From Psammoneis japonica (Eukaryota), in the NCBI GenBank assembly GCA_008632985.1, contig QPGO01000047.1, forward strand, positions 186,001-250,000: a DNA stretch of 64,000 bases, written 5' to 3'. The position numbers were made by a program, and so were the translations under genes. Positions 8,352 through 41,510 of the stretch are shown here, piece after piece. Every line of letters starts with the position of its first letter. Position 1 is the stretch's first letter. A model generated the notes under the pieces. That model saw only the letters and a list, made by a program, of their open reading frames with translations. It ran no database searches and was not told the DNA's origin.

Positions 8352-9272
8352 TCACTTTCCGATATCGTCCAAGTTGAATTTCGTTGTTTGATAAATTTCA
8401 TTGATCCAGTTACCATAAAGCAAATGGCCGTGACAACGCCATCGGTTTCGCGGTGTCTGAGTCGGATCGTCATTTGGAAAATAGTTGACGGGTAGGACAA
8501 TTTCTTTCTCGGCATTGACATCTCTGGTGTACTCTTGCTCCAATGTCAGTGCATCGTACTCGAAATGATTAAAGATGAAGAAGCAATTTCGAGCCTCATC
8601 GTGGACTAGACAAGGCCCGACCTTGTCGGATGAGAGAAGAGTGACGAGACCGGAAGCGGCGTCGATTTCTTCTTGAAGGATGCAAGTCCATCGACTGACG
8701 GGAATAAGCAGCTCATCGCAAAATCCACGCAATACTGGTGATGACGGAACGCATACATCATGCCAATAGCATCCAAAAGCTTTTGCCGACAGCTTGTGCT
8801 TTTGCACATTTGGGTGAAAGTAATTCAGCATGGCCATGGCGCCCCAGCATATGGCAAACGTTGAGTGAACATTGGTTTGAGTCCATTCAAAAACTTCGCA
8901 CAATTCATCCCAATAATGGCAATCATCGAAATTCAAATGTTCGATAGGAGCTCCAGTGATAATAGCGCCATCAAACTTTTCCTTCTTCACGTCCACAAAG
9001 GGTTTGTAAAAGGCCTCCATGTGTTCTGGCGGCGTGTTTTTACACTGATGAAAACTCATTCGTATCAACGTCAGTTCAATCTGAAGAGGCGTTGCTCCAA
9101 TCAACCTTGCAAACTGTGTTTCGGTTTGTATCTTTTTGGGCATGAGGTTCAACAAACCAATCCGAAGCGGACGAATGTCCTGGTGTTTGGCGTCGTACTC
9201 GGACATGACAACGACGCCTTCGGACTTGAGAATATCAAAAGCAGGGAGATCTTTTGGAATTGTAATGGGCAT
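8352..9272 (-). CDS. metA: Homoserine O-acyltransferase of the MetA (HTS) family, probably acetyl-CoA dependent; intronless
   Basis: Motifs [59 protein letters not shown]. Confidence 0.93.
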
Positions 9273-9515
9273 GATGGTTAGTCTTTTGTCTGGTTGTTGG
9301 TTGTGTCGAGTGATATAACAAAGAGAGAACAAAGAACTGTGGTGTCAACTCAGCGACGTTGCCCTGGTACATGTTCTACGCAATTTCGAAATTTCATCGA
9401 CATTTTGAAAGAATTCTTTTTTGTTCTTGTCCAAGATCCATGGTTGAGTCGAAGCAGTCGGAAAGGTCGAGTTGACTCATTTATTTTTCGAGCGACGCAC
9501 GTACGAACTGGCGAC

Positions 9516-17489: not shown

Positions 17490-18479
17490 TCACACACACT
17501 GCACCCAACAACTAACCCAATTCACCGCATGATTCGGATCGGGACACAAGGAACGTCCCCGACTCTTGATGTCTTGCTCACCCGTGCTCGCACCCAGATC
17601 AAAAGCTCCTCCACGAGTTTTGAACTCTCGTCCACCAATGTTCTGGATGCAAAACAATTTTGGCGTCTGAAACGGCATCGTCTCGCATTTTTCATGCAGA
17701 GCACGAGCCTGAGTTTGAACAAGTGTGACAAAGCTGTTTGTAGATTCTTGAATTGTCGTCGTCATGCATTCTTTCCAAATGCGAGCCTGAATTCGTGCCT
17801 TCATGATGAAGGTCTTCAACGAGTTGTTGATGATCTTGTGCAAGCTCGAAGCGGTTTCACAAACAGTCTTGGTGGTCTTCAAAGAGAGCTCTTGGAATGT
17901 TGTGTGCAACTTCGACGTGGTCTCAATGGCACAGTTTGACAAAATCTTGTTGCAAGTGTCGGAAAACGTCGGGATGGTCATCATTGCGGCGGGCGCGTGC
18001 TCTCGAAGGATTTTTTGAAAACGGCCGGACAAATCAATTTCGTGCTCAAAGGACAAGTCAAAGGAGGACTGGCAGACAGAGCTCGTGGCTTTCAGAGCTT
18101 CAACTGGCATGTCGTCCGCAGGGGTGCAGTTGCGAGTGGCATTGTGAAGAAGGGTGGAGTTGCAGTCCTTGTGGTCAAAAGACACACAATGGATGCTCAA
18201 CCTGATTTGAGCTTCAATGGGCATGCTCGCAGGTGTTTTGTTGCAGAGGATGTTCTGGAGGTGGACAAAGGAGTCGTCATGGCTTTCGATCATCGCAAAC
18301 ATCGTGGTCGTAGCCAAAGCAATGCGAAGCATGTCTTGGCTTGCTTTTGCAGCAATCAATGCATGCTGCACTGTCACATCAAAGACAGCTGAGAGCGGGC
18401 CAGCAAAGGGACCAGCGCTCATGGCACCGGCAGCAATGCCAAGGGAGATGACAGCAAGATTCTTCATGGAAGCAATCAT
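17490..18479 (-). pseudogene. 329-codon tyrosine-free ORF within a TpA-depleted island; probably a mutated gene or element copy
   Basis: No Tyr in 329 aa, enriched in Cys/His; TA nearly absent while CpG is retained. Confidence 0.45.
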
Positions 18480-18870
18480 GGTGATGTCTTGACTGTGTCA
18501 CTTTCCTGTTCAAAGAAAAGATTGTGAGAGAATCGAGAGCAGAAACTGAGGCATCCATCGACAGGAAGCATCAACGTCAAGCACCAGACATGCAGATTTC
18601 TGCATGAAACACACCAAAAACACAACTCCCCCGCATCAATTGTGTCACCCAAGAGAGGCGAAGATGGTGTTGTCACCTTTTACAACATTCAACATTGGTC
18701 TGGACATGAGGTGTGATTCTCCTGAAATGAACTGGGACTGCAGAACAACGGCAGGTTTTGGTGTTTTGCTTTCAGCCGATGTTGTGATGAGGTTAGGGAG
18801 ATTTGGAAGTGACAGCGATTTAGCTCGTGTTTTCTTCGGCAGTGACATCATTTCTTGACACAGCCCCTTT
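17530..18870. other. TpA-depleted tract 1 (CpG retained)
   Basis: Only a handful of TA dinucleotides in about 1.3 kb; the flanking genes have normal TA content. Confidence 0.85.
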
Positions 18871-19485
18871 TTTCTAGTGACCGCCGCGCTTCTTTCGCTT
18901 CGTGGCCCATTCATACAATGCACGAGGTGCAGTCAATGAAACGACCGGCATTATTTCATGGCAGGTTCCCTGCGTCACACTTCTACCAAACTGTACAGGA
19001 ACAGGCTCTAAAACATTGAGCAAGAGGTGACATCAAAGCAAAACCAAGTCAGAATCAACGCCGTGAGCCAACCTACCAGCAGTCCATAGTCCACAATAAC
19101 TGCTTTTGCCAAATCTCGTGGTGTATCCGAATTGACGCCGCTACATCAAATATGACATCATCGTGTTGAAATCGTGGAATGGAGAGTCAACCGACGAACG
19201 TACTAACCACTCTTTCTGCTATTCAACGTGTTGACGTTTCCTAAAGGAAATATCACTGCGAGGAAAACAGCTGTTCGCTCAATAGTCCAATATCTAGCTT
19301 TATTTAGGGCGAGCAAGGGAGAGTTGTAACTAGTATCTTTTTGTGTTGGTCTAGAGGTATAATTGCACTTTTCACCAAGAATCGTAGGAAGGAGATGCAG
19401 TACTGCACGACCCCTGAACGACAAACTCGAGGGAACAACCAGATTCATTGCATTGATCAACAGAAAGTCTAGTTCACGACAACGA

Positions 19486-20478
19486 TCAAAACAGTTTTGC
19501 GTCTTTGCTCTTGTTTTTCTTCCTTCGTTTTGCCAAGGCCTTGTTGATTGCGTTCTGTCCGCCTTTGCGCTTGAGCTGCTCATACTTGAGCTCTGTTGTT
19601 ATTTGTTTCACCTTGTTGCGCTTCGGATAGTAACCCTGCTGGTGGTACTTTTCTTGAACAACTTTCTGAACTTGCTGCTGCAACTCTGTCTGTTGTAGCG
19701 TCGCTCTCTGTTGAATCAATCGTTGCAAAGTCGCTTCATCTTGCTCCAACGTCGTTTGCTGCAATTCAGCTCGATGTGCTTGACGTCGTCGCTGTCCCCG
19801 CCTTCCGGTCAATTTTCGAAGCGCAATCCGTTGTTTAATTCTCTTTATTTCTTCTTGATGCTTTTCTTTCATAAATTCATAGTTATGATTGGTGGATTTT
19901 GTGTTACCATCAGAACTAAATCTCGGATCGCGAGCCTTGTATCTTCCGCTTCCAATCTCCACTCCAATGCCTGATGAGTTCAATAGAGGCGCACCACGCT
20001 GATAAAAATCACGTCGTAACGAGCTTGCCACTGTTGGAGCATGCTTGGACCTCTTCTTCGTTTTTGTCCCCTTTTCTGCAAGGTTCTTGTCCGACTTGTG
20101 CAATTGTTCTCGTGCCTTTTCGATCGCCTCCTTTTTTCGTCGACGTTTGTCGTGTAAAGCCTTTGTTAACTTCATACTACCTTCTGTGCGTCGTTTCTCT
20201 AGTCGTTCCTGCAGAGTCATGTGTTGTTCAACGTCATCTTCATTGTCGTATTCTTCGTCTTGTTGACTGCTACTGCCTCTGCTACTCTCGCTCGCTTCAT
20301 CATCGTCGCTGCTGCTACTACTGTCGAGAGAAACGCTGTCGTCTGACGGAAGGTCTTCCAAGCTGCGAATTTTAGCGACTGCAGAGGGTGATTCCTCTGA
20401 GGAGGTTAATGACACGGAAGAATCATCACCGGAGGAGGACGAAGAGGAGGAGGCTGGCTCTGCCGCTGCGTTGCTCAT
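19486..20478 (-). CDS. RRP36: rRNA biogenesis protein RRP36-like (DUF947)
   Basis: KKRSKHAPT, RDPRF, acidic N-terminus, basic coiled-coil C-terminus. Confidence 0.75.
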   Translation of the reverse strand: MSNAAAEPASSSSSSSGDDSSVSLTSSEESPSAVAKIRSLEDLPSDDSVSLDSSSSSDDDEASESSRGSSSQQDEEYDNEDDVEQHMTLQERLEKRRTEGSMKLTKALHDKRRRKKEAIEKAREQLHKSDKNLAEKGTKTKKRSKHAPTVASSLRRDFYQRGAPLLNSSGIGVEIGSGRYKARDPRFSSDGNTKSTNHNYEFMKEKHQEEIKRIKQRIALRKLTGRRGQRRRQAHRAELQQTTLEQDEATLQRLIQQRATLQQTELQQQVQKVVQEKYHQQGYYPKRNKVKQITTELKYEQLKRKGGQNAINKALAKRRKKNKSKDAKLF

Positions 20479-21286
20479 GGTCGTGACACGCATTCCGCTT
20501 TCTGAGTCTCTCGCCCACTCGCGCTCTATCGGTAAGAGCGCGAGTGCGAGTGGCGAGAGCACTCGTGTCCTGCCTTCGTCCGTCGGCAGCACTTTTTTTC
20601 ACTACAATTCTACGTGATTTTGGAATTTCAATGTAGATATAAGAATCTGTATTGGTACACATTTCAACAAAGTTGATTTGCTTCTCGCCATGATGACAAT
20701 TGAGACCGAATGCAGCGCGATTGATTTTCTTCTCGTCATGATGACAGCCCGACCGTGACTTCGCTTTGCCTTTTGGGGTCTGCAGCCACTGCACCGTTCG
20801 TGACGGGCCACAAGCTGGATGAAGTGTGCTGTAGCGGCGCCGCCACCACAACAGCATCACATCTCCAACAAACCTTGGTGCCAAACATGACGCTGCATCC
20901 ATCCAAGGAACACCCACACGTCGCAAGCAACAAGCGTTCTTCTTCAAGTTCATTGGCATTACAAGCAAAGCAAGAAAGCACCATGTCTGCAACAACAACA
21001 CTCAACACTGCCGAGTGAATGACACAAAATCAAGTCGAGTTGTTTGCCAAGTTCAGAACTCAATTTTGTCTGCCAACTCAATGGATTTGCGGATGATGTC
21101 TGGCGGAGGCCTCTCGTCACGGTCCAAGCTGTGTCGTCGTGATCCTACCCAAAAGTCACGATTTTGTCCGGATCTTGTTTCCAATGCTTTCCAGCACGTC
21201 TGCTGCCGTGATCCTGCCGGCACGAGGCAGCTTGTGCTCCAGTGTCGCTTTTTTCGGCACCCATTTGCCATTCCACCCATGCGAAC

Positions 21287-21830
21287 TTGTCAAGCTCATT
21301 GTTCGTGAACAGTTGGAAGACCTCAAGACTCGTCATTACAAGATCTTGCAGCTGCTGATGGGCACTCTTCACATGCTCAGTTCCCCAGCGCTGATTTTTG
21401 CGAGAAGGTCCTCGATGTTGCCACGGACGTTGCTGATTTTTGTGTCGACGCTCAATCGCGAGGTTGCGGCCGAGACTGCTCAAGAGCAGGACTCTGTCGC
21501 ACCATGGCGGAAGCCAAGAGCATGGCCTGCCAGAACATGCTGATTTGGGCCGTTCACAGATGCGCTGTGCGATTTCCCAATTTTGCCGAGTCGGTTGTTT
21601 TTGCTCTCATGGACTTTTTGGCTGCGGATGGTTCCACGCAGGTTGCTCTTTTTGTCAGAGCCATTGTCGAACAGCACATCGCACTGCGAGGATCCATCTC
21701 GCCCAAGTTGTTGGGTTTCATCAATGACAGTTCTTCGAGCAATGTAGTGTGTGTTTGTCTCTGGATCTTGGGTGAATGCTTGGATGCTGTGCAGAGGAAA
21801 TTGATGTGGAGGCCTTTGAAACTGTTTCCG
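21287..21830 (+). pseudogene. COPB1: Decayed fragment of coatomer beta (COPB1), copy 1
   Basis: VKLIVREQLEDLK..., AVHRCAVRFPNFAESVVFALMDFL, FVRAIVEQ, CLWILGEC; frameshifted. Confidence 0.75.
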
Positions 21831-23229
21831 GAAAGAAGCATGTTTTTTTTTTTAATTGCTTGACACATCCGTCGGCTTGGGATGCGTTGACACTGCCGTG
21901 TGGCTTCTGATGCATTGGAAGGCTCTGCCATCGTTGTTTTCGGTGGATCCTGCAAACTGCTGAGGCAAGTGGTGTCTTCGCAATGCCAACAAAATCATGG
22001 GAACCGCACTGATCGGTTCCCGTCATTGAGTGTGATCAGGTCAATGTTGTCGCTGCGTTGTCAACCATGGAAGCATTTTGCAGCGAATGTGGTCGAAGCA
22101 GATTTGATTTATTTGCAACAGAAGCAGACCGGGGCTCCTCCCTTTGGCCAACTGGGCTTGCTCTTCGACCCATTGCCAAGGAGCCAGGGAAAGTGGACGT
22201 TTTCGCTCCACTTCTAGCTTGCCTTGATCGTGTCAGGGAAGTGCGAAAGTTGCAATGGATCATGCCAAGGGGGAATTCGGGCGACTCATTGCGTCTGGGA
22301 AAGGTGTGGAGGAGATTGAAGGAGAAGTTGACCGTGGAAGGGAGGAAGTGCTCAAGTTGGCGGGACCCGAAGCGCCTGTTGGCATGGGAACGCGAGAAAG
22401 AGTTCTGATGTCTTTCGACATTTCTGACTTTAATTTGTTGACGGATGGTTGGTGTGGCAAACTGCGGTTCAACACGGTGGCTCAGCGATGAGATTCGAAT
22501 CTGATTCGCTTGGCCTTTGCACTTGCCATGAAGCATGACGACAACGTAGAGGAAGGAGATGATTTCTTTTTCGATTGGAAAGCCAGCACGGACATTGTTG
22601 GTCAGGAGAGCCCTTTGCCCTCTTGGCATTCGTACATTTCTGCATTGGCAGGCCCTCCAATGCACTTTGGACAGAGACGTCTCCTCATGGCGGACATGCT
22701 CGATGCAGAAAAAAGCATGTCCATCTGCCGTGCACACTCATTCCAAGAAGCATCAGAACAGAAGGCGGAGGATGCATGCTTGGCGACATCTGTTCAAGGA
22801 TCTTCGCCCCATTGGCCTGCCGCAGCAAAGGAGAAGACACAAAGCAGGCCCAAACAGTGACAGAAAAGACCCACGACCTTGCTCGCTGGGCAATGGATCA
22901 ACCAGAAACTGCTGCAATTCTCGCTTCAAAGGCGATTCGTGCAAAGTGCATTGAAAATGTCCTTCTTGATGCCTCGAGTTTCACAATCAAGTTGCATTCT
23001 TTCCAGCTGCCACACGAAATTTTTCGAGCATTGAGGCTTTTGCTCTCTTGTGGTTTCGATCTGAGGGGACATCTGGGTGGAATGGATCTACTTAGCCTGA
23101 CTGCAACAAGAGCTGCTGCATGGTCAGTTGGTCTTTGTTCTTGACAACTAGCAGCAGAGAGTGGCCACTGTCAATCTGCATTGAACAACAGGCAAGTCCG
23201 CAACTGTCACAGTCTAAAAAGGGTGCCAC

Positions 23230-25230
23230 ACTGGTCCGCCGGTGGTGACGTTCTTGGCCTTCGATCGATTGATTGCGAGTGCAAGCTGTGCCACGAACGA
23301 TGAAAAGTGCGGTTCAAACTAGTTTGCGACGACACGGAGAAGTGTTGGACAAATTTTTGTGTTTGTTTAAAATGTTTGCATTGCACAAGACTCTGCTCAT
23401 CTTGATCGAATGAAAGCAACGATAGATTGCCCAACTGAAATAAAATGGCAAAGTGTCTCCATGCGATTCCGTCTTGAACAGTTTCCTCGGCTTCAATTTT
23501 CCTTTTCCACTTGCCTCTGCTTTCAAAAAGAAGGCGCCTCTTCAGATTTTTGCTTCAGAAACAACTCGTTTTGCATGTCTGTAAAACGAGCATGAGTTTG
23601 AGTGCCACATGGATCTCTTGTTTTTGTTCACATGTTGTTCGAGAACAAAGACATGCTTCGGAATCAGCTTGATGAACATGTGCATCCAATGCAAGCTTGA
23701 ATTCGAGACCCAGCATGATCAATCAAACATTCCTGCACAAAGCACTTCCATGGTCGCACCTCTCATGTTGATGGCAAAGGCCTGCTTTGTCGAAAAAGCG
23801 AGCCAGAAAAACAAGTCACAGCCGCATCCGCATGAAAATGCTCGGCAATCCTCCCCAGTCGAACATCTTGTTGGAATGATCGTCGCAAGATTGCACTGAC
23901 GACATCCCCTCCCCCCATTGAGCACCTTACAATGTGCTGCAATCCGGATCGTCATCAAAGATGTCAATGAAAACCTGAATGTGACCTGAGCCGAGCTGGT
24001 CCATTGGGTGGTCCTCGGTCGTCTGTTTCTCGCGTCCGTCGCCCAATTTCATGTCGTAGAACGGGTCAAGGTCATCGTCAAAACAGACCCTTAAAATCTT
24101 TGCCCTCCATGTCTTGTTTGAATGGCGACAATGCACGCACTGGCTCTTCTTGAATTTGGACGTTGGCTCCTTCCAAGGCTTCTTGACACAGTCGTCGCTG
24201 TGGCCCGACAGATCGTCCTCGGTTGATGGCAAAAACAATCCCGTAACGTGCACGCGAATGAGACAGGCCAGCACCACTGCCAACATGAGACGGAAGAGAA
24301 ATCCCATGAGGCCACTGACATCAAAATTCTTGAAAGCCATGCCGATGTGAAACACGACAACAGCAGTGGTCAAATCGAAGTGCTTCAAGACGGCTGCTGC
24401 GCTCGCAAAGTCGACACGCTTGACACATTCCTTGGACATGCCAACAACGAGTCCCACACACTTCAATGAGATGGTTTTGGACTTGATGGCAATGAAATGG
24501 AGTTGGCTCCAGATGGGAGACCCGATGATGGAGGACCAAATCGATTTGACAGTGACGTTTGGAAACCACTGCTGCTTGATGTGCAAAAAGTCCTCCGTGA
24601 GCCCCAACAACCCCTGGTGCAATCCACAGACAAACGTTGAGAATGTCGTGATGGAAACAACATCGAGATCTTGCAGTGAGGCGCAATGGCCAACCCAAAG
24701 AGCAAAACGAAGCCAATCGCTCGTGCTCTTGCGTTGAGTCACAACTGCAATCAAGTCACAGTGGCTGACATTGATCACGGCGTTCATAAAGAGGACAGAG
24801 GACATCATGGTGATGATGGAGATGCAATGTCTTTGTTGCTTGTACCTTCAAAGAAATTGTGACAGCTTGAATCGATGCCTTTCGAAAGGTGCTCGGACAG
24901 TCTTCAGTGCAAAGACACGTAGAATGTACGAGGAATCCCGGCAAAAAGAAAGTCTTGGCACCGTTTCACCATGCGGCATGCCAATGTCGGGCTGGATAAA
25001 TGCATTGCCTGAAACCGACCTCTAACATCATGGTCACTGCCGGCAAACATGTTGGTGTTGCGATCAATTCGCGGTTGCTTTTTTGACGCTTCGATGGATG
25101 TTTGTGTGGGTGGGTCAGGAAAGTTCAACATTTCCTCTCATGTCCTTTCGTCTCCCAAATGTTTCCCATTTAGCAGAGGCAATTGTAAAGCGATGTCTGG
25201 TTTCGTAGGATGAGCTTTTTATTTAGGAAT
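23230..25230. repeat. TpA-stripped copy of the segment at about 47750-49760 (same orientation)
   Basis: Colinear alignment over about 2 kb, including flanks. Confidence 0.95.
23927..24808 (-). pseudogene. Hypermutated paralog of ORF 48437..49318; frame still open
   Basis: Same 293-aa length; substitutions dominated by Y>C, Y>H, I>V, I>T. Confidence 0.8.
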
Positions 25231-26239
25231 CTTTCTTCGTGCACACTTCATCACAACCTCCTCCAAGGATCAACTGGCAGACTGTCTGAGGCACTTGAAG
25301 CTTTACGTCCTTTGGTCATGGGTTGGTGAGTGTGAAGGGCAATTCCTCTTCATAAATGACAGCTGCCGGAATCAGCTGAAATCGATCTGATTGGTTGATT
25401 GAACTTACAAGACACAATGAGAGGGAGTGTGAAGATTGTCAAATCGTCATTGCGGTCATTGTGACTCGCCGTTACAAAGACGACTCACGTCAGCAAAAAA
25501 AACGTCACTCGCCTCAAGTGATTCAGAAGAGGGGACGTTGAGAGTCTCCTCTCCTCACAATCTCAATCTAGTCGCTGCAACACTGGCACCTGAGAATCGC
25601 CCCAACACCCTTTGCATCTCATTGCACTCTGTTTCTGACAATGCTCTGGATGTTGTGCTGACACGCTCACTGATGAAAAGAGTCATTTTGCCCTCAAACC
25701 AGTGGTGAGAGCGAGTGTGGGGGGTGATGGTTGACTGGCGCCAGCAATGAAAATTGTGCCAGCAATGGGCACCAGCAACAACTTTCCCTGCCAGTGACAT
25801 GTTGATGGCAACCAGGAACAGCATTGCAGATTTTTCATGCCAGTGGTTTTCTCGTGAGCTGTGTGTGCCTTTTTTAAAACAGCAAGAATGCAGCCAGCAG
25901 CTGCGCCCCAAGTCGCAGTGGCTCCACCTGCTCAGCACCCCCGTGCTGCGGCAAGCACTGCATCCACTGCTGATTGCAACAAGAGCCAATCTGTTGGTTG
26001 ATTGATGAGACCCACCTCAATGTTGATGCGAGTCTGTTCAGAATTTTGTGTTGCAAAATTCATGGAGCCCAAGTTCAGAAGTGTGGCCAGTCACTCTCAC
26101 TGCCCCCGTTCCTTGTCCTCTTTTGGGCATTGTTTGACTGTCACATTCTTGAATGGTGCATTGGCAGGAAGCTGCACATTTGGGCACAATGATCAATCCA
26201 ACAGTGCCCGATGGGAAAATCCAGATCAGCTGTCAATCT

Positions 26240-26930
26240 AAAGAACCTTCCATCCATCGAAGCTTCCTGTTGAGTCACAATGACAGGTGTGCTAGCTGAG
26301 ATTGCTTCCAGTTGGACAAGAATCAAAACATGGATCCACCAACTTTTTGTGCAAGGGACCAATGTTGGCAACTTTCATCTTCCATGCAAAGTGTCCTGCA
26401 GCCACCATGGCGATCACTGACAAAAGGACCAATGGCGCAAGGAAGCAGCAGCAAGGTGATTGGTCTCTGACACTCTCCAACAGTCTTGTGAGTGATGCCA
26501 TCAGCCTCACAATGAACCCAATCAAGAGGGTCAGTCATGGTCCAGAGCACAAAAACCACAATTGTCACAACAAAAAGAGGCAACATTGGCCCCGTCATTT
26601 GTTGTGGTCCAACCCTGCAACACTTGAGTTGAAGGACTTTGAAGGACCTGCATCATCTTGGCAAACAAAGCTCCATGTGCCGTGGTGTGTTGCAGTGCAA
26701 TGAGCCATGGAGTTGCCATGCACGCCTTGTTCAGCTGGGTTTTGTTCCAGCCTGCTCTTTCATCAAAGGAAAAGGCGAACATTGCCAAGGCCACCAGCAA
26801 GGAACCATGAGAGACAAACCCACAGCACAGAGAAGGTGCTCAGATGGCTCTGCTCAATGCTGCCAACAAGCAACAGAGGCTCCACAGTGCCATTTTCTGC
26901 ACAAAAGGAGGCTCGCCTGAAGTGTCACTC
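26240..26930 (-). pseudogene. Decayed class C (7tm_3, GABA-B-like) GPCR fragment
   Basis: FDERAGW...ACMATPWL...GALFAKM and VLWTMTDPLDW...VGEC, spread across frames. Confidence 0.6.
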
Positions 26931-27024
26931 TGTTGGTTGCCTTGTTTTCCAGATGGGCAAAAGGCAGTCAGTGATGGTTGTGTTTCCTTGCCACGGACAA
27001 ACACTCCATGCCATCCATGGGTGC

Positions 27025-28320
27025 CCCGCACTGTGAGAATCCATCTCAACAAAATTGTTGGCTTTTGTTGATGGCATTTCTTCCAGCAATGCAGTGCATG
27101 CTTGCCTCTGGGGATCTTGGGTGAATGCTCAAATGCTGTGCGGAGGAAACCAATGTGGAGGCCTTTGAAACCATTTCTGATTGCTTGGATCCAACACCAT
27201 TCTTTGTGATTGCCAAGGAAGACAATCATGAAGAGAAGCACAAAGAAGGAGAGGTGTCCAAAATTGTTTTGAAGAATGTTGTGTCAGCAAACAGCACCAA
27301 TGCAAGACCCAAACCATCTGCTCCAAACAGCCATTTGTCCGGACAAGTCAGACAATGCTCCTCATCTGCGCAAGATGGTGATCGGCAGCTGTGTCTTCAT
27401 GGGAACCATTCTCCAGCTTCCTGCCTGACCAAGTTGTGTTTGAGGACTGTGGATTTTCTCAAATGGATGTGTTGGTGATTGAGAAAATGATGTCCAATGC
27501 ACTGCTTGTCATGTGCAGTGCAGCAAAAATGGCTGAGGCCAGCATTTCAGCTCAGTGTCCTGCTGTTGCTGATTGTTCAGAACACATTGCACCATTCTGC
27601 TGTGCACTGTTGATGGGCTCCAAGGCTTGCATTTTGCTCAAGGATGCTCTCCGCAACAATGGCAAAGCATGTTTGCCCAGTTTTTTAAGACACTCAGGTG
27701 CAAAGAAACCAAAGATGCTTTGGCTGATGATGAGGATGGTGCAGGCAAATTGGCCATGGCACAGCTTGACGGCTTGATTCACTTTTGTCAGCTGTGTTCC
27801 ATGGCCATGCAGGATGGTGATGTTGACCTTGATGATGTCACCATCCTTGATTGTGACATTGTCTTTAAGATTCTGACAGCCATCAATTGTGCTCCCAACA
27901 CACCAGCCAACTTGATGGTGGAGCTTGCCATGATGGGTGACATGAAGACTGTCAAACACCCACAGTGTCAAAACATTGGCCCTCTTGATCGGATCACGTG
28001 TGCTGTGCTTCCATTGAGGTCTCCTCCACCAAGATGGCTCACAAGGCGACACAAGAGAAGGGATGCATCAGCATCTCAGCGACATTTGCATGGGCATTGT
28101 GGATTGCACTTGCCCACAACTTGTGCAGATGAGGCCTTTTCATCCACCATCAGGGCCAAGTTTGAACAGGAAAACAAGGTGGCTGCATTTCATTCTTGAT
28201 TCCCAACTTCTTGTTGGATTTTGTCAACCACATTGTCAAGTTGATCAACATGCATTGCCCCACTCTTCTTGATGTGTCAAAAATGGGAAGCTTCCCCATG
28301 CCACCAACCTCTGTGCAAGA
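27025..28320 (+). pseudogene. COPB1: Decayed coatomer beta (COPB1), copy 2, C-terminal half
   Basis: AQLDGLIHFCQL, DCDIVFKIL, VELAMMGDMKTVKHPQ, AKFEQENKVA, ATNLCAR. Overlaps copy 1 in sequence (27025-27175 vs 21678-21825). Confidence 0.75.
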
Positions 28321-31300
28321 AGGCAAGACAGTGCTTTTCCTTGATGCACTTGCCAACTGTTTCCCAGTTTTGTGCTGGACATTGCACAACATGTGTTTCA
28401 GTCATGAGCACTGTCTGTTGATGCCTGAAGAAAGAAACTTTTCATGAAACCGTCGGCACTGAGAAGTTGCCATTTGACGCATTCAGCACCATTGCAACCA
28501 CAAGATCGAGCGTGCCAGTGTGGGATTGGTCCTCGCTTGTGCTCACACCTTTGGCATGCTGGTGTGTCATGTCTGCTTTCTGATTCAACCTGAATTTGCA
28601 GTTTTGAATCATCAACCAAAACAAGCATGCTTTTGTTGTTTTTGAAGTGTCTTTGACAAAGAAGCTCTCATTGATCTTTCAGTCAAGAAGAAGGGCGGCA
28701 ATGACAGCAATTGGCTGGGTGTGCATGCATTGATCATCGTGAGACACAAGGCATTGCTTGGGAGATTGCATCACTGGCATTCAGAGATCAATGCCTGAAT
28801 CCAGGTGTTGGAACAAACAATTGGAATGGAGAACAAAAAGAGCACTCTGAACTAAAAAACACCACTTCTTCAGCCTTGTGCTGCTGTGTCAACCAGACCT
28901 GGCCTGCTGCGCTCTCTGCTGGGCTTCTGTCCCTTGTTTTGGTTTCCCTGGTTGCTGCCAGAGGGTTGATTGCTTCCTTGCAGCCAACAGTTGATGGCCA
29001 TGAAATGAAAAGGCCTGCAAGGCTGAGCATCTTGAGGATCAAGCATCTGACAACAGATGTGGTTGGCAACAACATTGAAAAGCTGCATGAATGACAAAGT
29101 TCTGTGCATTCATTCTAGACACCATGGAATGTTTTCCTTCATTTGTCACCACAGAGAGGAGCCGCTGTCCTTTCCAATGCATGAACAAAGCCAAACTGTG
29201 ACATCAACACTCACCTGGCCATCTCCATTCTTCCACAATTTGTTCTCCATGTCCAAAATGAGCAAGGGTTTGGTTCACTGACTGCCATGGGTCTTGATCA
29301 AATGCAGAGTTGTTGTTTTGCATTGAAGCACCAATCATGCCTGGCTCACATTTTGTTCCGGAAAACACAAGTGATGGGGTGGGACCCACTGTTGCTTGAA
29401 CCTTGGTGTTTCAACAAAGACTGGCTGCTGCATCGTTTGAAGAGTTGAGTGGTGGAACCAGGGCACAAAGGGTGCATTTCTGTGTTGACAAGTGATGAAG
29501 ATGAAAAGCAACATCAGCAAACATTCTTGAATGAAAAGAAACATGGGCACAAAATTGACTTGTGTTGGGGGTGCATTTGAATGCAGTGCAACACAGTGAG
29601 TGCACCACACAGCATTTTGGATTGCACGACAAACTTGCACAATGTTGGCAAGTCTTTGATGTGCACAAAAGCTGTTTTGTAGTGTGAAATGGAGTCAAGA
29701 GATGCCCCCATGCATGCTCAATTTCCAGGGGTGTAAAACAAGCAGTTCATGAGTCCAGTGGTGACTCACGATCCTCGCGGATCTGCGTGCAACACACACC
29801 CAGCATCAGACAAAACAAAAATGCTGCCCGTTGCTTGACCAAGCCCAAGCAAGCATCTGAAGGAAACAGGATGGGCTGCTTTCTCCTCGTTCTGTGCAAA
29901 AACAGCAACAACATCTGCCAGATCAATGTCTTCATCTGGCATCTCCACATTCTCCAAATCTTGACCCTCTCCTTCCAGAGCAATGCCATGTTGCAACAGC
30001 CCATCATCTGAAGGTTCCTCTGAATCATGCATTGGTTCTTCCACATCTGCTGGATCATTCAAGGCATTGTCAGGTGCCTTGTCTGCTGCTGGAGCGACTT
30101 CTTTGGCAACAGCATTGTTGTCAATGGCAACAGCAGAATCAGCCAAGGGCTCCTCTTTGCACTCTCCTTCCAGCACAATGTTGTGATGCAATGACTTGAC
30201 ATCCACAGGATCCTCTGAATCATCTGTCAGCACATCCAAGGCATTGTCTGGCTCCTCACATGCTTGGACAATTGCGCCCACTAGAGCAACTTCCTCCACT
30301 GCAACAAGATCAGCAGCAGCAGCAGCAATGACAGGATCAGCAATTGGTCCCTCAACCACTGCATCTGCTGGAGTGACAATGACCTTTGACCAGCTCAGCT
30401 GCCACTTGAGTCTGCACCCATCCATGCCAATGATCACACCTTGGATGCATTTGATGCTCACAAATGTGTCAGTCTTGTTTCCACTTGTGCTCAAGCAGCA
30501 CAGCAGCCAATTGCTCATCATTCAGGGTGGGAATGCAATGCAGGCATCAAAGAATGCATTTGGCCACCCCACCAGTGGGGGCTGGAGGAAGGTCGCCAAC
30601 AAAGACATTCTTGATCAGTTCTTCATCGGCAGCCACTCTGATTCCCACTGACAACACTGCCAAGCCAGCCTGTCTTGCTGCTTGTCAATTCTTCTCAAAG
30701 CAAAGTCCAGCTTTGGATCTGACAGCACTGGAATCTTGGTTGCACATTTTGGATCTTGAAGAACTTTTGGAGCAGCCATGCCTGTTGGGATGGCACAGTC
30801 ACAAACACTGTGCACAGGTTCTTCAGCCCGGCAGTGGTCTCCATCTGGTGCTCCTGCGGCAAAAGCATTTGCACTTCAACAACAGCAGCCAAGTGACCAC
30901 AAACCACAAGGGAACACAGATGACACAATGCACAGTCCATGCAACTGATGCAACCACAAGAGCATCCAAAACAGCATTGCCCACTTGATCCCAAAGAAGT
31001 GTGGCAAGGTCATCAATTCCCACAACTTGGCAGCACAAGAAACAGACAGCGGTGCCAATCAACTTCAGGGAGCAGCATGGGAGCACCGCAGCAAATGCAG
31101 CAAGGAAAGCTGTGCAGACTGCAAGGACAAAGGGCACCAGTTCTTCAATCATGCAGCAAATTGTGTCCACGGCAATGCACGAGAAAATCCATGCTTCCCA
31201 AAGCAAACCACTGACGACTCAGCCGTGGTTTTTGGTTTGCCGTGAAACACATGCAGCAGGAGATTGACAAAGAGCATGATCAGTGCATTGTGTGCAATCA

Positions 31301-34300
31301 TGGTGGGGGCAATGGCATCAGAAAAAACAGATTGTCAACAGTGTGCTTCAATGCAAGCAAAACTTGAAATGGTGCAGCAAGCAAGACGTTGCTCATTGTT
31401 TGTGACTGGTGTTGTTCATGAACATGCAGAAACTGCTCTGGAAGAGCCCGCAGAAAAGCCAACAGTCAGCCACACTTTTCAAGTTGTGGTTGGATGTTGT
31501 GGCACATTTGCACTTGGTTGCTTGCAGGCTTCAAGCTGGAAACAAGAATCAGAGGCCAGGAGTGATGTTGGATGCACCCACAATGAATGTCATCCATTTT
31601 AGAGCCGTTCTCTTCAATGAAATTCAGTGTTGCCACAACAGAGCCCATTCTTCTCAGGCCCACCACAAACATGCAGCCTGCAGATTTTGGCGCTTGCTGC
31701 AGTGACACGCCACACCTCAAACTGGTTGAATGATCCTCCCGATCACACCATGGTTGGCTGACAATGAATGCATTCTTGATTGAAAACATCAACAGGGCAA
31801 GACTGTCCTTGTCAATGAGGAGCAGCCTTGCCAAGTCTGAGCTTGACAGAGATGGTCCTACAATCCAACAATGCAAGAGCCAAGCTGAGAACATCTTTGG
31901 ATTTCTTTTTGCTTTGTTGTGGCAACACAAGTGCCAACGGCGCACTCAGAAGCAAGTCACCAAGAAGCACAGTTGATCTTTTCAAACCACACGATTCAAA
32001 TGAAATGACAAATTTGGCAATGCCACACTTGTGGCTGAAAATGAGCATCAATGTGCAACAAAATGTCCTTTGAAGCCCAGATGACAGTGACCACCTGCTC
32101 AGCTGGTTTTTGAAAATTGCAACACCTGTGGAAGGCACAATTGCATGTGTGCAAAGTTCGTTGCTTCTTGTCAGTCAACATTTTCACCAAGGAGTTTTCT
32201 GAGGGGCTTGCAGCAAGCTGCTCCCAAAGAGCCAATTTCAACCTCCAAGACTGGCTCAATTGATGTTCCAAGTTTTGCAGCACTGTCACCTGCTGAGCAG
32301 AAAATGGAGCTGCTTGATTTGCTCCAACAAGCAGAGAGTGCTTTTGCGCTTGCCATTGATGTGCAAGCAACAACGGTCAATGGAGGTGTTTGTCCTGTGC
32401 TGTTTTGAGTCTCTCTCTCTCTCTCTCTCTTGGGCAGAAGATGGTGCATTCACAAGGGCTGCAGAGTTTCTCTGTTTTGTGCAAAAGACCACACAAAGGC
32501 CTGTTCCAGCTCCAGGTGATGCACGCAGGCTCAATTCCCATCACTGGCCCATTTTTGCATTTGGCGCAATGAACTCCTTCAAAATCGGTTTTTTCCAAAA
32601 TTGAATGGCGAGTGTGAGTGTGCACAAAACTGTTGTTTTTTGTGCACACTTGCCTTTCAATTTTCAAAACAATTGAATTTGAGGAATTTAATGTGCTGAA
32701 CTGCACAGAAAACCAGCCTCTTGTTTGATGAATTGCTCATCACCTGGGGCTGGAACAGGCCCACAGACAACAAGGTGCAGCAGCATGCATGCTTTGCTGC
32801 AAGCTTCACCATGACTGTCAAACACACAAAAATGACAGTTGTCAAAGATTGTTGTTGAGGAGCAGTGTGCGCACAACCTCTTGTTTCTCATTCTCCACCA
32901 CCAACAACCCCACGCAGCAGATGCTCCCCACTCTCAACATCTTCATCATTGACAAATGCAAGAGTTCTCACCTGCCTGCATCTCCTTCTCTGTGATTGGA
33001 TTTTTCCATGTGCAGCACATTTCCCATTGCTTGATCAGCTTCTGTTGTCATGGTGGTGCAGAAAGTGATGCATGATGCCATGTGTGACATGTGTGGTGGA
33101 TGCTGGGCTGAACCCGACAATGCCAGATGGGTGAATCAAGTCCAAAATGATGTCGTTCATGCTGAAAGTGTCAAGCCAGGGAAAATTAAATTGAGCCATG
33201 ATGTCCATTGCGCGGACCTTTCCAACTTGGAAGCCATTGACTGATTCTTCATTTGAGCACCAACCACAAGAGGCATGGTCAAGCTTCGAGACTGACAACG
33301 CGGTGCACTGATTTCTGAATTCCAAAGCACCTGCTCTCTGACAACAACTCCACCAGAACATGCCATTTGGGTTGCACACAGTTTTGTTGGCATCACTGTT
33401 TGCAACAAAACTCTGCCACATGTTGTTGTCATGGTGGGTGTGATGCGTGATGCATGAGATGCAGTGGATGATGTGGCACCCACTGAACCCGACAAGGCCA
33501 GATGGATGATTCAAGTCCAACCAATCAACTCAAATCAATTGTGACATCAGCTCGTGCTGAAAAACTTGGCAGGTGCAACCCAACCTTGACGTCCATTGTG
33601 TGGGCCTTTCCTGCTCCAGCAACAAAACAGCCCCAACACTGTGCAAGCTCACGCTTTTCATCCTTGCTTGCCCATCAACATGGAAAGCAACACAAGTTTG
33701 TTCTCACTTCTTGTTTGACAGGTGCTTTGTGAAGCAGGGGGGAAGTCAGTGCTGACCAGTTGCTCTTTTGTCTGTGATTGCATGGAAAGCCAATGGCTGT
33801 GCAAACACTCAACACTGGCACGGCGGGCTGGCGGTTGACGCTGGTGCTTTCTAAAAAGAATGTGTTGGACTGGGATGAGGAGTTTCTGCTTTTGATGCTC
33901 GTTGGGTGTGGCCCACCTGCGCAAATGTAACGTTCTTCTTGTGCATCAATTGATGAATTGATCCAGAATCCTTGAGTCAGGGCTGGGTTGAAAAATGACT
34001 TGCAGCTCCCTGCCCCCCCCCCCCCAACTTTTGCAGCCAAACACCTTGCCAAACCTTTGTGTTTGGACCATCAGAGATGGACATCTCAACCTGTCTGTTC
34101 TTTGTGTTTTTTGCTTGTTTTGCCCTGTCATGCAACAAAAAAAAACTCACAAACTTGTTGTCTCCTTGTGTCTCTCAACAGATTGTCGCATGCAATGGTG
34201 ATGCAGAAGAAGAAGCTCATTGGATGGAGATGCTTTTGAGAACTCGGGAATTGCACTTTTGGACCAAGCTTGCACTTGCATGGATTGGTCTCTTGGAGGA

Positions 34301-37300
34301 ATTGAAGGCTTGTTTGACAGAGTGGGAAACAGTCAAGTTGACACAAAAACAAGCTCTGGCACTTTTCATGGATGCTGTCAAGACACGATTGCATGGGTGA
34401 GGGCCACAAGCAGAAGAATCCCGCCTTGCACTCTGGAAAGTTGAGTCCAGAAATGAAAGCCTGTGTGGATGCCATTGTGAAGGCGATGGGCAAGTCACAG
34501 AACTGTCCAGTTGTCAGTGCCTCTCTGAAAGAGACTGTCACTTGTGGCTTTCATGGAAGCAAGAAGAGTGCACTCTTTGAGATTGAAAGTAAATTGGGTG
34601 TGGACGTGACGAAAGAATCCAAAAACAAGGCTGAGTGAAAAATTCTTTTTCGACCTGGCACTTTGTTTGTGATTCTTTTTTTTTGCAAACACAACAATCC
34701 CGAGTGCAGAAAGTGGAAGTTTGTTTCAGTGCAAGAGATTCATCAATTTTGGTGGAAATTGTCAGAGATGAGTGGAGCTTTAGATTTGCAAGATGAGTGG
34801 CAACTGCAGAGAACTTCCTGCTCCCTCCATCCGGAGGTGAGGTTGTGGGGGGGCATGTGGCAAAGACGGGTGTGCCCATTCCTGTCACAGTGTGTGCTGT
34901 TCTTGGCTGAGCAAGTGCATTGGATGCATTCTTGGAAGCAAGCATTTGCAAAGAAATGCCATCCATTGTTTTCATGCATGTTCTCTTTGTTGCATTCCAC
35001 AGCTTCATGCCCACCTGCTCCTCCCGTGTCTGGCCAGGTGGGGATGATGTGGGGTGTCCCCTGCATTGAAATTGCTTGCATTCAACTGGAGGTCTGCCAC
35101 AATGTCTGCAGCCACGGATTTTGATTGACAGAGTTTTGGGAAAATCTCTCACTCTGTCAGAAGCAGCCACAAGAGTTGCATCCACTCTGGCAGCCACAGC
35201 AAAATGCGTGCTTTTCCTTGGGACGGGCCATCAGGGCTGAATTTTGGAAAGTCTCGATGACACAAGTCCAGCAGAAAGCAACTGTGTCTTCCATCTTTGT
35301 GCAATTGTGCGATTGGCTCCAATGCATTTTTGCACTCCTGCTGCAATGCAATGACCATTTGACTGGCAACTCTGCACATGCAATCGTCTTGCTGCAATCT
35401 AAACCTGTTGAGCATTTCTCCAAAAAAAAAAAACAGCACCATCTTCTTTTGCTGCACTTGTGGCAACTAAAATGTTGCACATGATTGTGATTGCCATGTT
35501 GCAAAAATGGCACTCCTCCAGAAAACTGCTGTCTTTTGCAACACACATGATGTGAAGTGGTCGTGTGACACCCATGTGAGGAACAAGGCTTCTTTCCTGC
35601 AATTGCACTGCATCACGTCCTTGGCATTGTTGTGCTGCAAATGGTTGGGATCGCTTCACATTCCACCACCAGTGTGTGATCTTGAGTGCACTTGTAACTC
35701 TCAGGTAGAATTGCATGCACCAAAGTGCTGTTGTCAGTCCATGTGGCCATGCACTGGTCAAAGATTCATGCATGAACACAGATTGAAGATTTGATGATGA
35801 CACCACAATGACTTTTGAGAGAAGCACTTGTGTTGGGCCCTGTGAGGACTTTTTGCAAGAACCAGCATGGTGCAATCACCACCTTTGTAAAAATGTGCAG
35901 GACATGTGCCAAGAAACTCCAACTTTGCTTTTTGGTTGCTCTGGTTGCAATCAAAACAGCACCAAAAGACAAAAGCAATTCAACACAAAAACTTGCAGAT
36001 CACACTCCAAAATGCATGATGGATTTTTGGGAGAAAAAACTGGGTTGAAATTGATGCATCAGCCTTGTCAATCACAAAGCAAAGTGCACTTAATTGTCCA
36101 TTCGCAACCAAGGCACAACTCATGCAGGAATGTGCAGAAAATGCACTGGGCTCCTCATTCTGCACTTTTTCAATGATCTGGATGTGATCAAGTGCTGCTG
36201 AAAAATCAAAGACTGACATCATGACATTTTCTTGCCAAATGGCTCAAAATCTGCTCGCCAATCTGCTTCTGCTCACCTGAAAACTGCTCATTTGCAAGAA
36301 AACGAGCTCCCAGTGCAAGAAAATCTTGGTGGTCGTGCAAGCTGTTGCACGAGCATGACCCTGTGCAGAACAAGTTGTTTGTGCTTTCCCTCATTCTTTG
36401 GAGCAACATGCAGACTGCATGGAGATTGCCTGCACCGGCAGAAAGCCAGCAGAAGCAAGTGAAAAATCCACTTCATTTTTCTCGCAACATGGCCAAAATC
36501 TGCTTTGCTCACCCAACATGATGTGCCAGTTTTTGAGTTTTTTGGTGGCACTTGATGCAATTGAAATGGTGCCAAAATGCCCAGACCAATTGACCACCGA
36601 CATCACTTTTGCGGAAAATGGCAAACCACATGACAGAGCTTTGGGAGAAAAAACTGGGTTGAAATTGATGGCTGTGTTGAACTTGTCAAACAGAACACAA
36701 AGCACACTGTTTTGCCCAAAAAGCACACTTGCAATTGAAAAGCACACTTGAGACTGAATGCTCCCACACACAGAAATCCACACAGTCATCTGGCACATTG
36801 GAAAAGGTGCACTTGAATTGCACTTGAGCACACTTGTTTGTCTTTCCTCCATTTTTAAAATGGAGTTTCGTGCAACTGCTTCTGTGCTCCAGAGGAAAAG
36901 GCTTGCACTTTGGCATGTGCGCATGGCAGCGCTTGTTGCAGCGATGCAGATGCTGATCCAGCTCTTGCTGGAGGCCCATCCAACCAGCAGCAGCACATGT
37001 TCAACAAGATTTGTGTCGACAAGGCTGACAAGGCAGTTTTTTGATCAAATCTTTCGCCACCACGGGCAAAAGCTCATTTTCATTTTGAGCATTTGCGCCA
37101 TTCCACAGCAGAGCAGCTGTCACAAACAAGGATGAAATGGTGAAAGGGTGCTGTTTGCCATGACATGTGGCGATGCTTCATCGCAGCAATCTCTCAGAAA
37201 AAATGAGAAATGAGGGCCCTGCTTGTGTGTGCACAGTGCGAGCAAGACAGGGTGCAATGGCGCACACCATCCACACCCACAACAAAGAAAGACAAGTGGT

Positions 37301-38349
37301 CAATGCTCCCCACAAGCCTGGTCTGTCCAATTTTTTCCATTTTCTGTCCATGTGCAATTGCACGTGCCCTTGACAAAAAATCTTGCAGTTTGATTTCCAG
37401 ACTTGATTTGTTGCATTTTCAAAATTCTCAGCATTCTCACTGCCAACACCAATCAATCAAGTTGCCACAAAAACAAAAAACAAAAGCAATGGAACAAGAA
37501 CAAAACAAACTGCCAGAATTGCCATTTTGTTGACTCGACACCTGGGTGATCCTTTGAAGGATTCATGTTGTTGTCTGGCAATCACAAGGGCCAGCATGTT
37601 GCTTGTTGCACTGGTTCATCAATGTCTTGCTCACGTGCAAGTGTCAATTCAGGCCTTGTTTGCTGCCGGTGATGCTTCTTTTCAACTTGCAGCCCTGGAC
37701 AAAGATGGACACAAAAATCGGATCACACTTTTGGATCATGTGGCACATTGCATTCTTGATCTTCAAGCACAGCATCAGCAAGCAGAAAATGCACAAGAAG
37801 AGTTGCCATCCTTTTTTGCTTCAGCTCAACTCTTGGATCAGTGCATTGCCAAGAGCTGACAAAACAACAGCAACAGCAAGACAACAAGGACCAAGGTTGC
37901 ACCGCATCCTCCACACATTCTACAACGCAGCGATGCATGGTGCAGTGAGTCTCATTTGCATGCAGCAGTGTGTGTTGTGGTTCAACAATGAGCCTGTGTT
38001 GGCATCAGCCAATTGCAGACCAGCTGACAAATTGAGAAAAGATGCCAAGATCTTTGCATGCTTGCATCTTGTGGCTGTGTTGTCAAGGGTCAAAGCACGC
38101 CAGTGCAGTCAATGGTCAGAAGAGTCAAGGGGCAGGCATTGGGAGAAATGAAAAACTTTGGCAACAATGCCTCATCACAAATCTTTGAGCAACAGTTGCA
38201 GCAGCAAGCAGCAGTGCACGAATGATCCGGGTGCAGTTCATGATGCCTTTGATTTTGACCAAGAACCAGAGCACCCCAGAATTTGTGCCCTGAGTTGGAG
38301 GATTGACCCTGAACAGAGCTTGAGTGACTGACAGAGTCGAAGTGATGGG

Positions 38350-40600: not shown

Positions 40601-41510
40601 TCACTGTGGACCAGTGGGGTTCTTGCTGCACTTTCTGTTTCTGCCATTTGTGGTGCTGTGTGGTGGAAATGTGCACAGGAGGATCTGGCTGGCACCACAA
40701 TTTCTTTAAAAAAGGTGTGCCACACAATGTGTTTCTGTGCTTGCCCACATTTCTGGCACATGATGGGCTTGACAAAAGACAATCAACATGAGCTCAGCAT
40801 CAACAGCAGCACACACTGGGATCCAGCGCACACCTGCTTTTGCATGGCCACATCCATGCTCACAACAAGCCATGTGCAGGGGTCATCATAATTCTGAAAA
40901 TGGAATTTTGAAGTGTTCATGCACAAAAGCATGTCACTCACACAAAAGTTGTCAGGCAAAGTGTCAATGGTTTCAGGGGAAAATGATTCCTTGAGGCCTC
41001 GGCCAAGCGGAGAAGCACGGCAGAAGCACGAGAAAAAAATCGGCCCAAACCCTGATTTTTGTGTTTTTTCTGCATAAATTTCTACATGATTTTTGTGCCA
41101 GTGCACATGGCTTGTGCCAATGCAACCAGAGACCAGTTTTTGTGAGCCTCCTTGTGCTGTCTCAGAGGCAGGTTGAGTGGAATGGCTGAGAGTGAGCGTG
41201 CAAACACTTCGCTGAAGCTCCTCTTTTTGTGCGACACTGTCTGAAATCTTGGCATGTCTTTTGTGCAACTTCTCACCTTTTTAGCTGGGCCTGAGTGGCT
41301 CCATCTGCTGGGTCATCATCTGGCTTCATTGGAGGTTCCAACTCAAGATCAGATGAGTGTGCCCTGAAGTCACCTGAGTCAGTGTGCTCCCATCCCCATG
41401 CAGCTGGCACACACAGTGCAGCACCGTAGTAGTTTCATCGCGGCGTCTGTCGTCCATACCGCGCCACAAAAGATGCCGGCAAGAGAGATAATAAGAGAAA
41501 ACGATGATGG

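Follow-up and report, generated by a model that had tools for sequence, protein, structure and literature searches.

Regional, strand-symmetric loss of TpA from blocks of a diatom nuclear genome, probably by adenine deamination of DNA

A 64-kb stretch of nuclear DNA from the diatom Psammoneis japonica (assembly GCA_008632985.1, contig QPGO01000047.1, positions 186,001 to 250,000), hereafter the window and the source of all coordinates given below, contains sharply bounded blocks in which nearly all TA dinucleotides (TpA) have become TG or CA, with both strands affected alike. An earlier note on this DNA had drawn attention to the clearest case, a pair of paralogs of which one (copy A) is TA-poor and the other (copy B) has a normal TA content. 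We find that TA was the original state, that the loss extends in blocks far beyond the duplicated gene, and that duplication by itself does not bring it about. The loss likely reflects A-to-G mutation at TpA, regional and strand-symmetric, probably through deamination of adenine in DNA, and accompanied by decay of methylated CpG.

Loss of TpA in one copy of a paralog pair

Copies A and B (Table 1) are paired by self-BLAST at 83.3% identity over 2047 columns (23264-25247 with 47769-49772); a sensitive search found no homology between them past about 2.15 kb on either side, and no further paralog of the pair was found within the window. Global alignment over A 23230-25250 gives 1725 matches, 219 mismatches, 66 of them transversions, and 169 gap columns. 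Eighty-five TAs of B are aligned, and in A they read TG (34), CA (27), TA (15) or something else (9), and never CG, TG or CA accounting for 61 of the 70 that changed. In the reverse direction we count one TG-to-TA change (61 versus 1; binomial p = 2.7e-17), and only two TAs are private to A. The split of 27 CA and 34 TG is compatible with 1:1 (p = 0.44), as expected from the strand symmetry that the earlier note had claimed, and the non-coding flanks are converted, as it had also claimed, with 20 of 28 TAs changed to CA or TG in the left flank and 13 of 23 in the right, next to 28 of 34 in the open reading frame (ORF). Selection on B cannot account for the difference between the copies, because the non-coding flanks of B are also normal in TA.

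Tabulated by context, the substitutions are concentrated at A preceded by T: 36% of these (65/179) changed to G, against 2.7-6.4% of A after A, G or C. A weaker excess is seen at CpG, where 11% of C before G (25/222) changed to T, against 3.4-5.8% at other C. Per site, A-to-G at TpA has run at about tenfold the rate of other transitions. This alignment and tabulation agree with the hand count on which the earlier note rested (B 48961-49310 against A 24451-24800), which we recounted identically: of 19 TAs, nine are CA, eight TG, one TC and one kept, with five changed CpGs and 26 mismatches in 350 columns, where the note had reported about five CpGs and few other differences. Both example sequences that it quoted are present in the window. 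The left end of the duplicate has TAA in B (47627-47629) aligned with TGG in A (23121-23123), and a plus-strand ORF of A (22563-23141) reads through this site.

The 293-codon ORFs of the two copies align without a single indel (dN/dS 0.52), the gap columns of the flanks numbering 67 and 10. Four Tyr of B have become Cys in A and three have become His. Both ORFs are open, which is no proof of intactness, because TA-free DNA cannot carry TAA or TAG stops.

TA is the ancestral state

A pairwise comparison gives no direction, and the TA-poor state could be the ancestral one, with B having gained TA by C-to-T change at CpA and TpG as in fungal repeat-induced point mutation (RIP), which yields CpA-to-TpA and TpG-to-TpA. 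Two outgroup tests settle the direction in favor of TA as ancestral and CA or TG as derived, B being ancestral-like and A derived.

The first test uses the C-terminal domain of the protein encoded by B. An exhaustive protein search with B returned 160 relatives at E <= 1e-3, all matching only residues ~154-287; the domain itself (~60 residues, B residues ~205-271) occurs one to ten times per protein in 160 other proteins. It has no Pfam model, copies A and B gave only sub-threshold Pfam matches, and one of the domain's relatives has a weak Tudor-knot match. Against a profile made from 169 domain instances in other proteins, B reaches 87.4 bits and A 59.0 bits. B retains the domain's consensus Val-Tyr-Tyr and Val-His, which in A read Val-His-Cys and Val-Cys. 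Among the 150 relatives listed none is free of Tyr, the lowest Tyr content being 0.85%. For the partly hydrophobic N-terminal 200 residues of B the exhaustive search found no relatives; a word-index search with the B protein found no homologue, and metagenome scans for relatives of B, with protein patterns and with a 35-base stretch common to A and B, found no match.

The second test uses two relics of the coatomer beta gene (COPB) that lie in the same block as copy A. We fetched orthologues with the decayed copy as query and considered columns that are at least 80% Tyr among 52 diatom orthologues. At the 12 codon placements opposite a conserved Tyr (10 distinct columns) the relics have no Tyr, five TGY codons (Y, pyrimidine), two CAY codons and five others; by contrast, 15 of 17 placements opposite conserved Phe still encode Phe, and 14 of 15 opposite conserved Cys still encode Cys. 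Opposite the Tyr of orthologue column 450, relic 1 has CAC and relic 2 has TGC; these are alternative products of one TAC, so the two hits are independent and postdate the separation of the relics. Three TG/CA swaps occur in the 71 bases common to both relics.

Family and orthologue outgroups thus agree with B in having Tyr at sites that encode His or Cys in the TA-poor copies. Composition points the same way: TA observed/expected of B equals that of the normal segments (0.55-0.59), the block that holds A is the outlier, and a control duplicate in normal DNA has the same TA content in its two arms. A gain of TA in B is scarcely credible on this evidence. The polarity assumed by the earlier note, that the TA-poor copy is the derived one, agrees with both tests, and its own refuter, outgroups with the TA-poor state, is not borne out.

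Extent and composition of the TA-poor blocks

Copy A is a small part of the affected DNA. Four TA-poor blocks together cover about 28.6 of the 64 kb (~45% of the window; Table 1), and the TA content of the window, 0.35 observed/expected overall, is bimodal: 0.035-0.12 in the blocks and their parts and 0.55-0.59 elsewhere, the four normal segments having 0.589, 0.548, 0.589 and 0.591 with CpG at 0.98-1.10. Block 2 itself has two parts. The part that holds copy A (20657-25300) has TA at 0.118 and CpG at 0.79; in the remainder (25301-41281) TA is at 0.035 and CpG at 0.22, and the longest TA-free run, of 1393 bases (26293-27686), lies here. The edges of the blocks, resolved to ~100-300 bases, lie within a few hundred bases of working-gene ORFs; block 3 starts ~600 bases upstream of the start codon of the copy B ORF.

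The combined share of TA, CG, CA and TG among dinucleotides is constant, at 0.2446 in normal DNA and 0.2407 and 0.2456 in blocks, and CA+TG rises from 0.148 in normal DNA to 0.196-0.231 in blocks; the lost TA and the lost CG thus reappear as CA and TG. CA and TG are close to equal in four of five block parts, and equal in blocks 1-3, so that the strand symmetry seen in the paralog pair holds across them. The losses of TA and of CpG differ in rate, because the younger part of block 2 is already nearly free of TA with CpG only ~20% down; under simple exponential decay we infer that TA was lost roughly seven times faster than CpG and that its loss then levelled off. Because the blocks have lost TAA and TAG, they are covered throughout by long, overlapping ORFs on both strands.

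These features bear on a different origin for the pattern, in which hyper-edited RNA was reverse transcribed and inserted, or in which the blocks are foreign DNA natively without TA. The adenosine deaminases that edit RNA (ADAR) do prefer U before the edited A, as cited in the available text of a preprint on the alga Bigelowiella natans (bioRxiv 10.64898/2026.01.13.699255). In the window both strands are equally affected, the promoter and downstream flanks are converted along with the ORF, and TA stays depleted without a break along 20.6 kb that include several unrelated relics, which derive from diatom housekeeping genes and not from foreign ones. The earlier note had argued from the equality of TG and CA against a single round of RNA editing or retrotranscription, and the flanks and the length of the block concur. 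We see next to no chance for either origin. ADAR hyper-editing fixed through a retro-copy was considered specifically and rejected, since it would be limited to one strand and to the transcribed unit.

Sequence context and chemistry

The TAs that survive in blocks are not a random sample of those in normal DNA. Y-TA-R (R, purine) accounts for 235 of 1439 TAs in normal DNA and for 47 of the 98 survivors, whereas R-TA-Y drops from 470 of 1439 to four of 98. Relative to normal DNA, survival is 0.51 for TTAA, 0.20 for CTAA/TTAG and 0.15 for CTAG, and is lowest for ATAC/GTAT (0), ATAT (0.011) and GTAC (0.029). The paralog pair behaves likewise, with Y-TA-R kept at five of 11 sites and other TAs at 10 of 74. 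Read on the mutated strand, the sparing of Y-TA-R and loss of R-TA-Y would correspond to a preference for T-A-Y over T-A-R, exerted by the base after A or by the base two before. In mixed contexts a hand count gives a 3' pyrimidine at 19 hits and a 3' purine at 13, which is in the expected direction and not significant.

Mutation of A to G after T accounts for two further properties of the pair. TG and CA are equally frequent because TpA is self-complementary and A-to-G after T may occur on either strand, and none of the 85 TAs became CG because, once one strand is hit, the other no longer has an A preceded by T. According to the available text of a paper on the subject, DNA adenine deaminases derived from TadA prefer YA, with YAY over YAR, and early editors YAC (PMC12528748). 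This shared order of contexts points to, rather than proves, an adenine deaminase of the TadA/ADAT fold. None of the window's named ORFs encodes a deaminase.

The self-complementarity of TpA also permits a different chemistry, since T-to-C before A yields the same table as A-to-G after T: the thymine of TpA might be modified, in a manner like that of 5-hydroxymethyluracil or base J, and mispair with G, or error-prone repair might act there. We know of no 5-hydroxymethyluracil-like or base-J-like thymine modification in diatoms. The sparing of Y-TA-R with loss of R-TA-Y fits the YAY over YAR order described for TadA-derived deaminases in the text available (PMC12528748), and the authors of the B. 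natans study, in the part available, also favor deamination of A (bioRxiv 10.64898/2026.01.13.699255). We regard a thymine-based route as improbable.

Content of the blocks

We scanned 240 stop-to-stop ORFs of the blocks against Pfam, namely all 109 of at least 100 amino acids and 131 of the 139 of 68-99 amino acids, the eight omitted lying inside copy A. The matches are Adaptin_N, Coatomer_beta_C, EFTUD2 and TPR, with weak matches to PAN_4 and 7tm_3. Adaptin_N and Coatomer_beta_C belong to the two COPB relics, whose best matches are diatom coatomer beta, and EFTUD2 to a relic of the N-terminus of the U5 snRNP 116 kDa protein (Table 1). A TPR_10/TPR_12 match (63777-63998, plus strand, E 3.5e-8) lies in a third frame, overlaps the EFTUD2 relic and is cut by the end of the window. 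Block 3 ORFs gave no Pfam match. As far as it can be read, the recognizable content of the blocks appears to be surplus, dead copies of genes of the host; no name can be put to most of the 16 kb at 25.3-41.3 kb.

Block 1 is an isolated 1.3-kb island with normal genes on both sides, and its open 329-codon ORF may be a dead gene copy or a small mobile element. A 251-codon acidic ORF inside block 2 (29766-30521, minus strand) has an internal repeat of ~195 bases and is matched by look-alike contigs at high depth in two sequencing runs (X1 and X2). No long terminal or inverted repeats were found bounding the blocks.

The TA-free sequence is present in contigs of a sequencing run

Modified TpA and CpG could be misread by a long-read base-caller, in which case the true DNA would retain its TAs; misreads on either strand would give CA and TG equally and would be confined to modified domains. 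Against this, run X1 has contigs that match TA-free DNA exactly, with no differences, over 25544-27236 (1693 bases) and 27415-29168 (1754 bases) at a word depth of ~65, and another over 24947-25332 of copy A at 62, the exact contigs overall being at 62-68. Among public sequencing data the stretch is listed for one DNA study and for no RNA study. Run X1 is probably from the source sample of the assembly, and its library type is not on record, a circumstance that leaves some room for misreading. Runs X2 and X3 have little or no coverage of the stretch examined. The sequences themselves also speak for evolutionary decay and against misreading, because A and B differ by indels (169 gap columns) and 66 transversions and the COPB relics have stops and frame changes; furthermore, TA is still read at 15 of the 85 sites in A and at 98 sites in the blocks. 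As far as one run shows, the TA-free sequence is not an assembly error, and we consider a base-calling artefact very improbable.

Place rather than duplication

The blocks could be the product of a true analogue of RIP, in which repeats are recognized as such and mutated at TpA, chromatin state being a consequence. Whatever can be identified in the blocks duplicates a host gene (copy A, the two COPB relics and the EFTUD2 relic), as such a trigger would have it. It would also be served by the many contigs of run X1 (800) that are 90-99% alike to 17.4-25.2 kb, at a summed depth of 230-790 against 62-68 for exact contigs; these indicate that this part of the window belongs to a multi-copy family in that genome, and block 1 too is matched by many of them.

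Duplication alone is no trigger, because several duplicated sequences have normal TA. Copy B, the partner of A, is untouched. The window also contains an inverted duplicate of 0.94 kb in normal DNA, which serves as an internal control: its arms differ at 20 mismatches and 26 gap columns against 902 matches (~98% identical in aligned columns) and have 29 and 31 TAs. The island between blocks 1 and 2 (18794-20656), which carries the gene RRP36, draws look-alike contigs and has TA at 0.548 and CpG at 1.10. Conversely, the most depleted DNA, at 25.7-29.1 kb, has only exact contigs at single-copy depth, where old copies could be below 90% identity. We rate a homology trigger as unlikely, without thinking it far-fetched. 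The normal RRP36 island between two blocks indicates that depletion stops at working genes, and the loss of CpG suggests a cytosine-methylated, silent domain; the simplest reading is that the process follows the chromosomal domain.

A model and its weaknesses

A gene-sized segment was duplicated, and later copy A, together with the whole 20.6-kb block around it, lost ~80-95% of its TpA by transitions. To explain this loss we suggest that an adenine deaminase of the TadA/ADAT kind may act on DNA, turning adenine into hypoxanthine, which pairs as G does. Such an enzyme would be guided to chromatin that is silenced and methylated at cytosine, where dead copies of genes lie together with, probably, further unwanted DNA, so that location in such a domain, and not duplication itself, would decide what is targeted; the same blocks lose CpG to TpG and CpA, probably by methyl-CpG decay. 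Such a process may amount to mutational genome defence, like the TpA hypermutation of B. natans.

Several observations weigh against this interpretation. The relatives behind the domain profile were gathered with B as query, a bias in favor of B; the COPB test is free of it, because the decayed copy itself served as query. With identities of only 29-43%, the alignments of the COPB relics may have set some Tyr columns opposite the wrong codon, and column 542 was placed twice. Block 4 departs from strand symmetry (207 CA and 286 TG). The Pfam scan of 240 block ORFs turned up no viral or transposon family, in contrast to the regions hit in B. natans, most of the block DNA being too decayed to name. 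The run that confirms the sequence is probably from the same sample as the assembly and hence not independent of it, and the look-alike contigs over 17.4-25.2 kb leave part of block 2 in a repeated family.

A broader version of the model is a possibility that we hold tentatively. Diatoms would possess a defence that mirrors fungal RIP, in which a DNA adenine deaminase preferring T-A-Y is aimed at silenced, methylated or unwanted DNA and erases TpA on both strands until no Tyr codon, TAA or TAG is left; since the same signature arises in a rhizarian alga, it might be old and widespread in the stramenopile, alveolate and rhizarian lineages (SAR), and its enzyme might be a natural adenine editor competent on double strands.

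If the interpretation is true, erasure of TpA is not peculiar to one alga and may be a general means by which SAR protists kill unwanted DNA, and the putative enzyme would be of interest as a natural DNA adenine deaminase. The before/after pair and the relics in one block provide a natural calibration of the rate of TA loss against CpG decay, and supply the wider R-TA-Y preference as well as evidence for targeting by place over duplication. There is also a practical consequence: in TA-free DNA gene finders over-call long false ORFs and predict proteins without Tyr.

Working genes and positions of features

The normal segments carry working genes, which are long ORFs mostly without interruption. 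Besides those in Table 1 they encode a P450, a peroxiredoxin, a GCK-domain protein, a TTL-family protein, a CAF1 nuclease and an amino-acid transporter. The best relatives of the carbamate kinase, at 65-68% identity, are among environmental sequences and diatoms such as Skeletonema, Thalassiosira and Cyclotella. Two of the genes, for carbamate kinase and homoserine O-succinyltransferase, encode typically bacterial enzymes and are here ordinary nuclear genes. The control duplicate contains an ORF of 211-217 codons and the first bases of the carbamate kinase ORF.

Table 1. Positions in the window of the TA-poor blocks, the paralog pair, relics, genes and control duplicate
Feature	Position	Strand	Remarks
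Block 1	17514-18793		TA observed/expected 0.036 (3 TAs, 84 expected); CpG 0.73
Block 2	20657-41281		20.6 kb; TA observed/expected 0.053 (74 TAs, 1397 expected); CpG 0.36
Block 3	49920-54121		TA observed/expected 0.039 (11 TAs, 285 expected); CpG 0.47
Block 4	61474-64000		Runs off the window end; TA observed/expected 0.068 (10 TAs, 147 expected); CpG 0.64
Copy A	23113-25260		TA-poor paralog, gene-sized duplicate of ~2.15 kb inside block 2; ends of homology by sensitive search
Copy B	47619-49784		Normal-TA paralog, ancestral-like; its segment, 41282-49919, has TA observed/expected 0.589
293-codon ORF of copy A	23927-24808	-	Still open; 1 Tyr, against 8 in B
293-codon ORF of copy B	48437-49318	-	C-terminal 55-65 residues are an unnamed Tudor/SH3-like repeat domain
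COPB relic 1	21072-21788	+	Orthologue residues 232-487; Adaptin_N E 7.2e-10; tblastn E 2e-34; neighbouring ORFs in different frames
COPB relic 2	27013-28294	+	Orthologue residues 447-909; Coatomer_beta_C E 7e-7; tblastn E 3e-31; in-frame stops and frame changes
EFTUD2 (U5 snRNP 116 kDa) N-terminus relic	63516-64000	+	PF16004 E 1.6e-5 and 4.3e-6 in two frames, both below the Pfam cut-off
329-codon ORF	17490-18479	-	Open, no known family; in the isolated TA-poor island of block 1
Carbamate kinase	685-1683	+	Ordinary nuclear gene, normal TA content; many diatom orthologues
Homoserine O-succinyltransferase	8352-9332	-	Ordinary nuclear gene, normal TA content
RRP36	19486-20592	-	Pfam RRP36 E 5e-19; in the normal-TA island between blocks 1 and 2
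Inverted duplicate (internal control)	1-941 and 44387-45315		Both arms in normal DNA, neither TA-depleted

Comparison with known systems

Fungal RIP resembles the process seen here in inactivating extra copies by transitions in a dinucleotide context, on both strands, and in leaving long skewed blocks. It makes C-to-T changes mostly at CpA and so creates TpA, whereas the diatom blocks destroy it, and it mutates both copies, whereas copy B and both control arms are normal. With the chemical direction opposite, as the outgroups indicate, and one copy mutated, we reject RIP itself. Decay of methylated CpG in silenced repeats is the counterpart of the CpG depletion in the blocks (0.22-0.79 against ~1.0) and cannot remove TpA. 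Diatoms methylate transposons and repeats, and DNMT4, which is related to the fungal RIP factor RID, is present in many centric species, according to the text available of a paper on the subject (PMC9998398).

Deaminases and editors of the TadA/ADAT2 type share with the diatom process A-to-G change on DNA, a pyrimidine before A and, in the available description, the order YAY over YAR (PMC12528748). Natural members of this family act on tRNA; action on diatom chromosomal DNA would be a departure that we infer from the mutation pattern.

The closest likeness is to the rhizarian B. natans. As described in the available text of the preprint by Mettrop et al. (bioRxiv 10.64898/2026.01.13.699255), giant-virus and virophage regions received 231 of the 302 new single-base mutations found in the nuclear genome of mutation-accumulation lines, and 230 of these 231 were A-to-G or T-to-C, all AT-to-GC changes being at TpA; only some lines were affected, mutations arising at ~6e-7 per site per generation, and the genome has 124 clusters of windows poor in TpA and rich in CpA and TpG. 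The authors propose an ADAT2-like DNA deaminase and a role in defence, and the preprint text available mentions neither diatoms nor the wider sequence context (bioRxiv 10.64898/2026.01.13.699255). In the open-access literature we found no published report of TpA depletion or hypermutation in diatoms.

The two systems have in common A-to-G or T-to-C change at TpA on either strand, confinement to discrete regions amid ordinary DNA, seen for the diatom in one 64-kb window, and loss of TpA with gain of CpA and TpG in clusters. They differ in host, a diatom being a stramenopile, and in degree, the viral regions of B. natans being mildly depleted (Rho TpA 0.45 in the text available) and the diatom blocks at 0.035-0.12. 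The targets reported for B. natans are an inserted giant virus and virophage, whereas the readable content here is dead copies of host housekeeping genes; the diatom blocks also lose CpG and show a preference for R-TA-Y over Y-TA-R, unlike the B. natans report as available (bioRxiv 10.64898/2026.01.13.699255). In B. natans the mutations were seen arising, and the diatom blocks are known from their historical trace alone. We suggest that the diatom blocks are best filed as a second case of regional TpA-to-TpG/CpA hypermutation, a kind of process described once, in a 2026 preprint.

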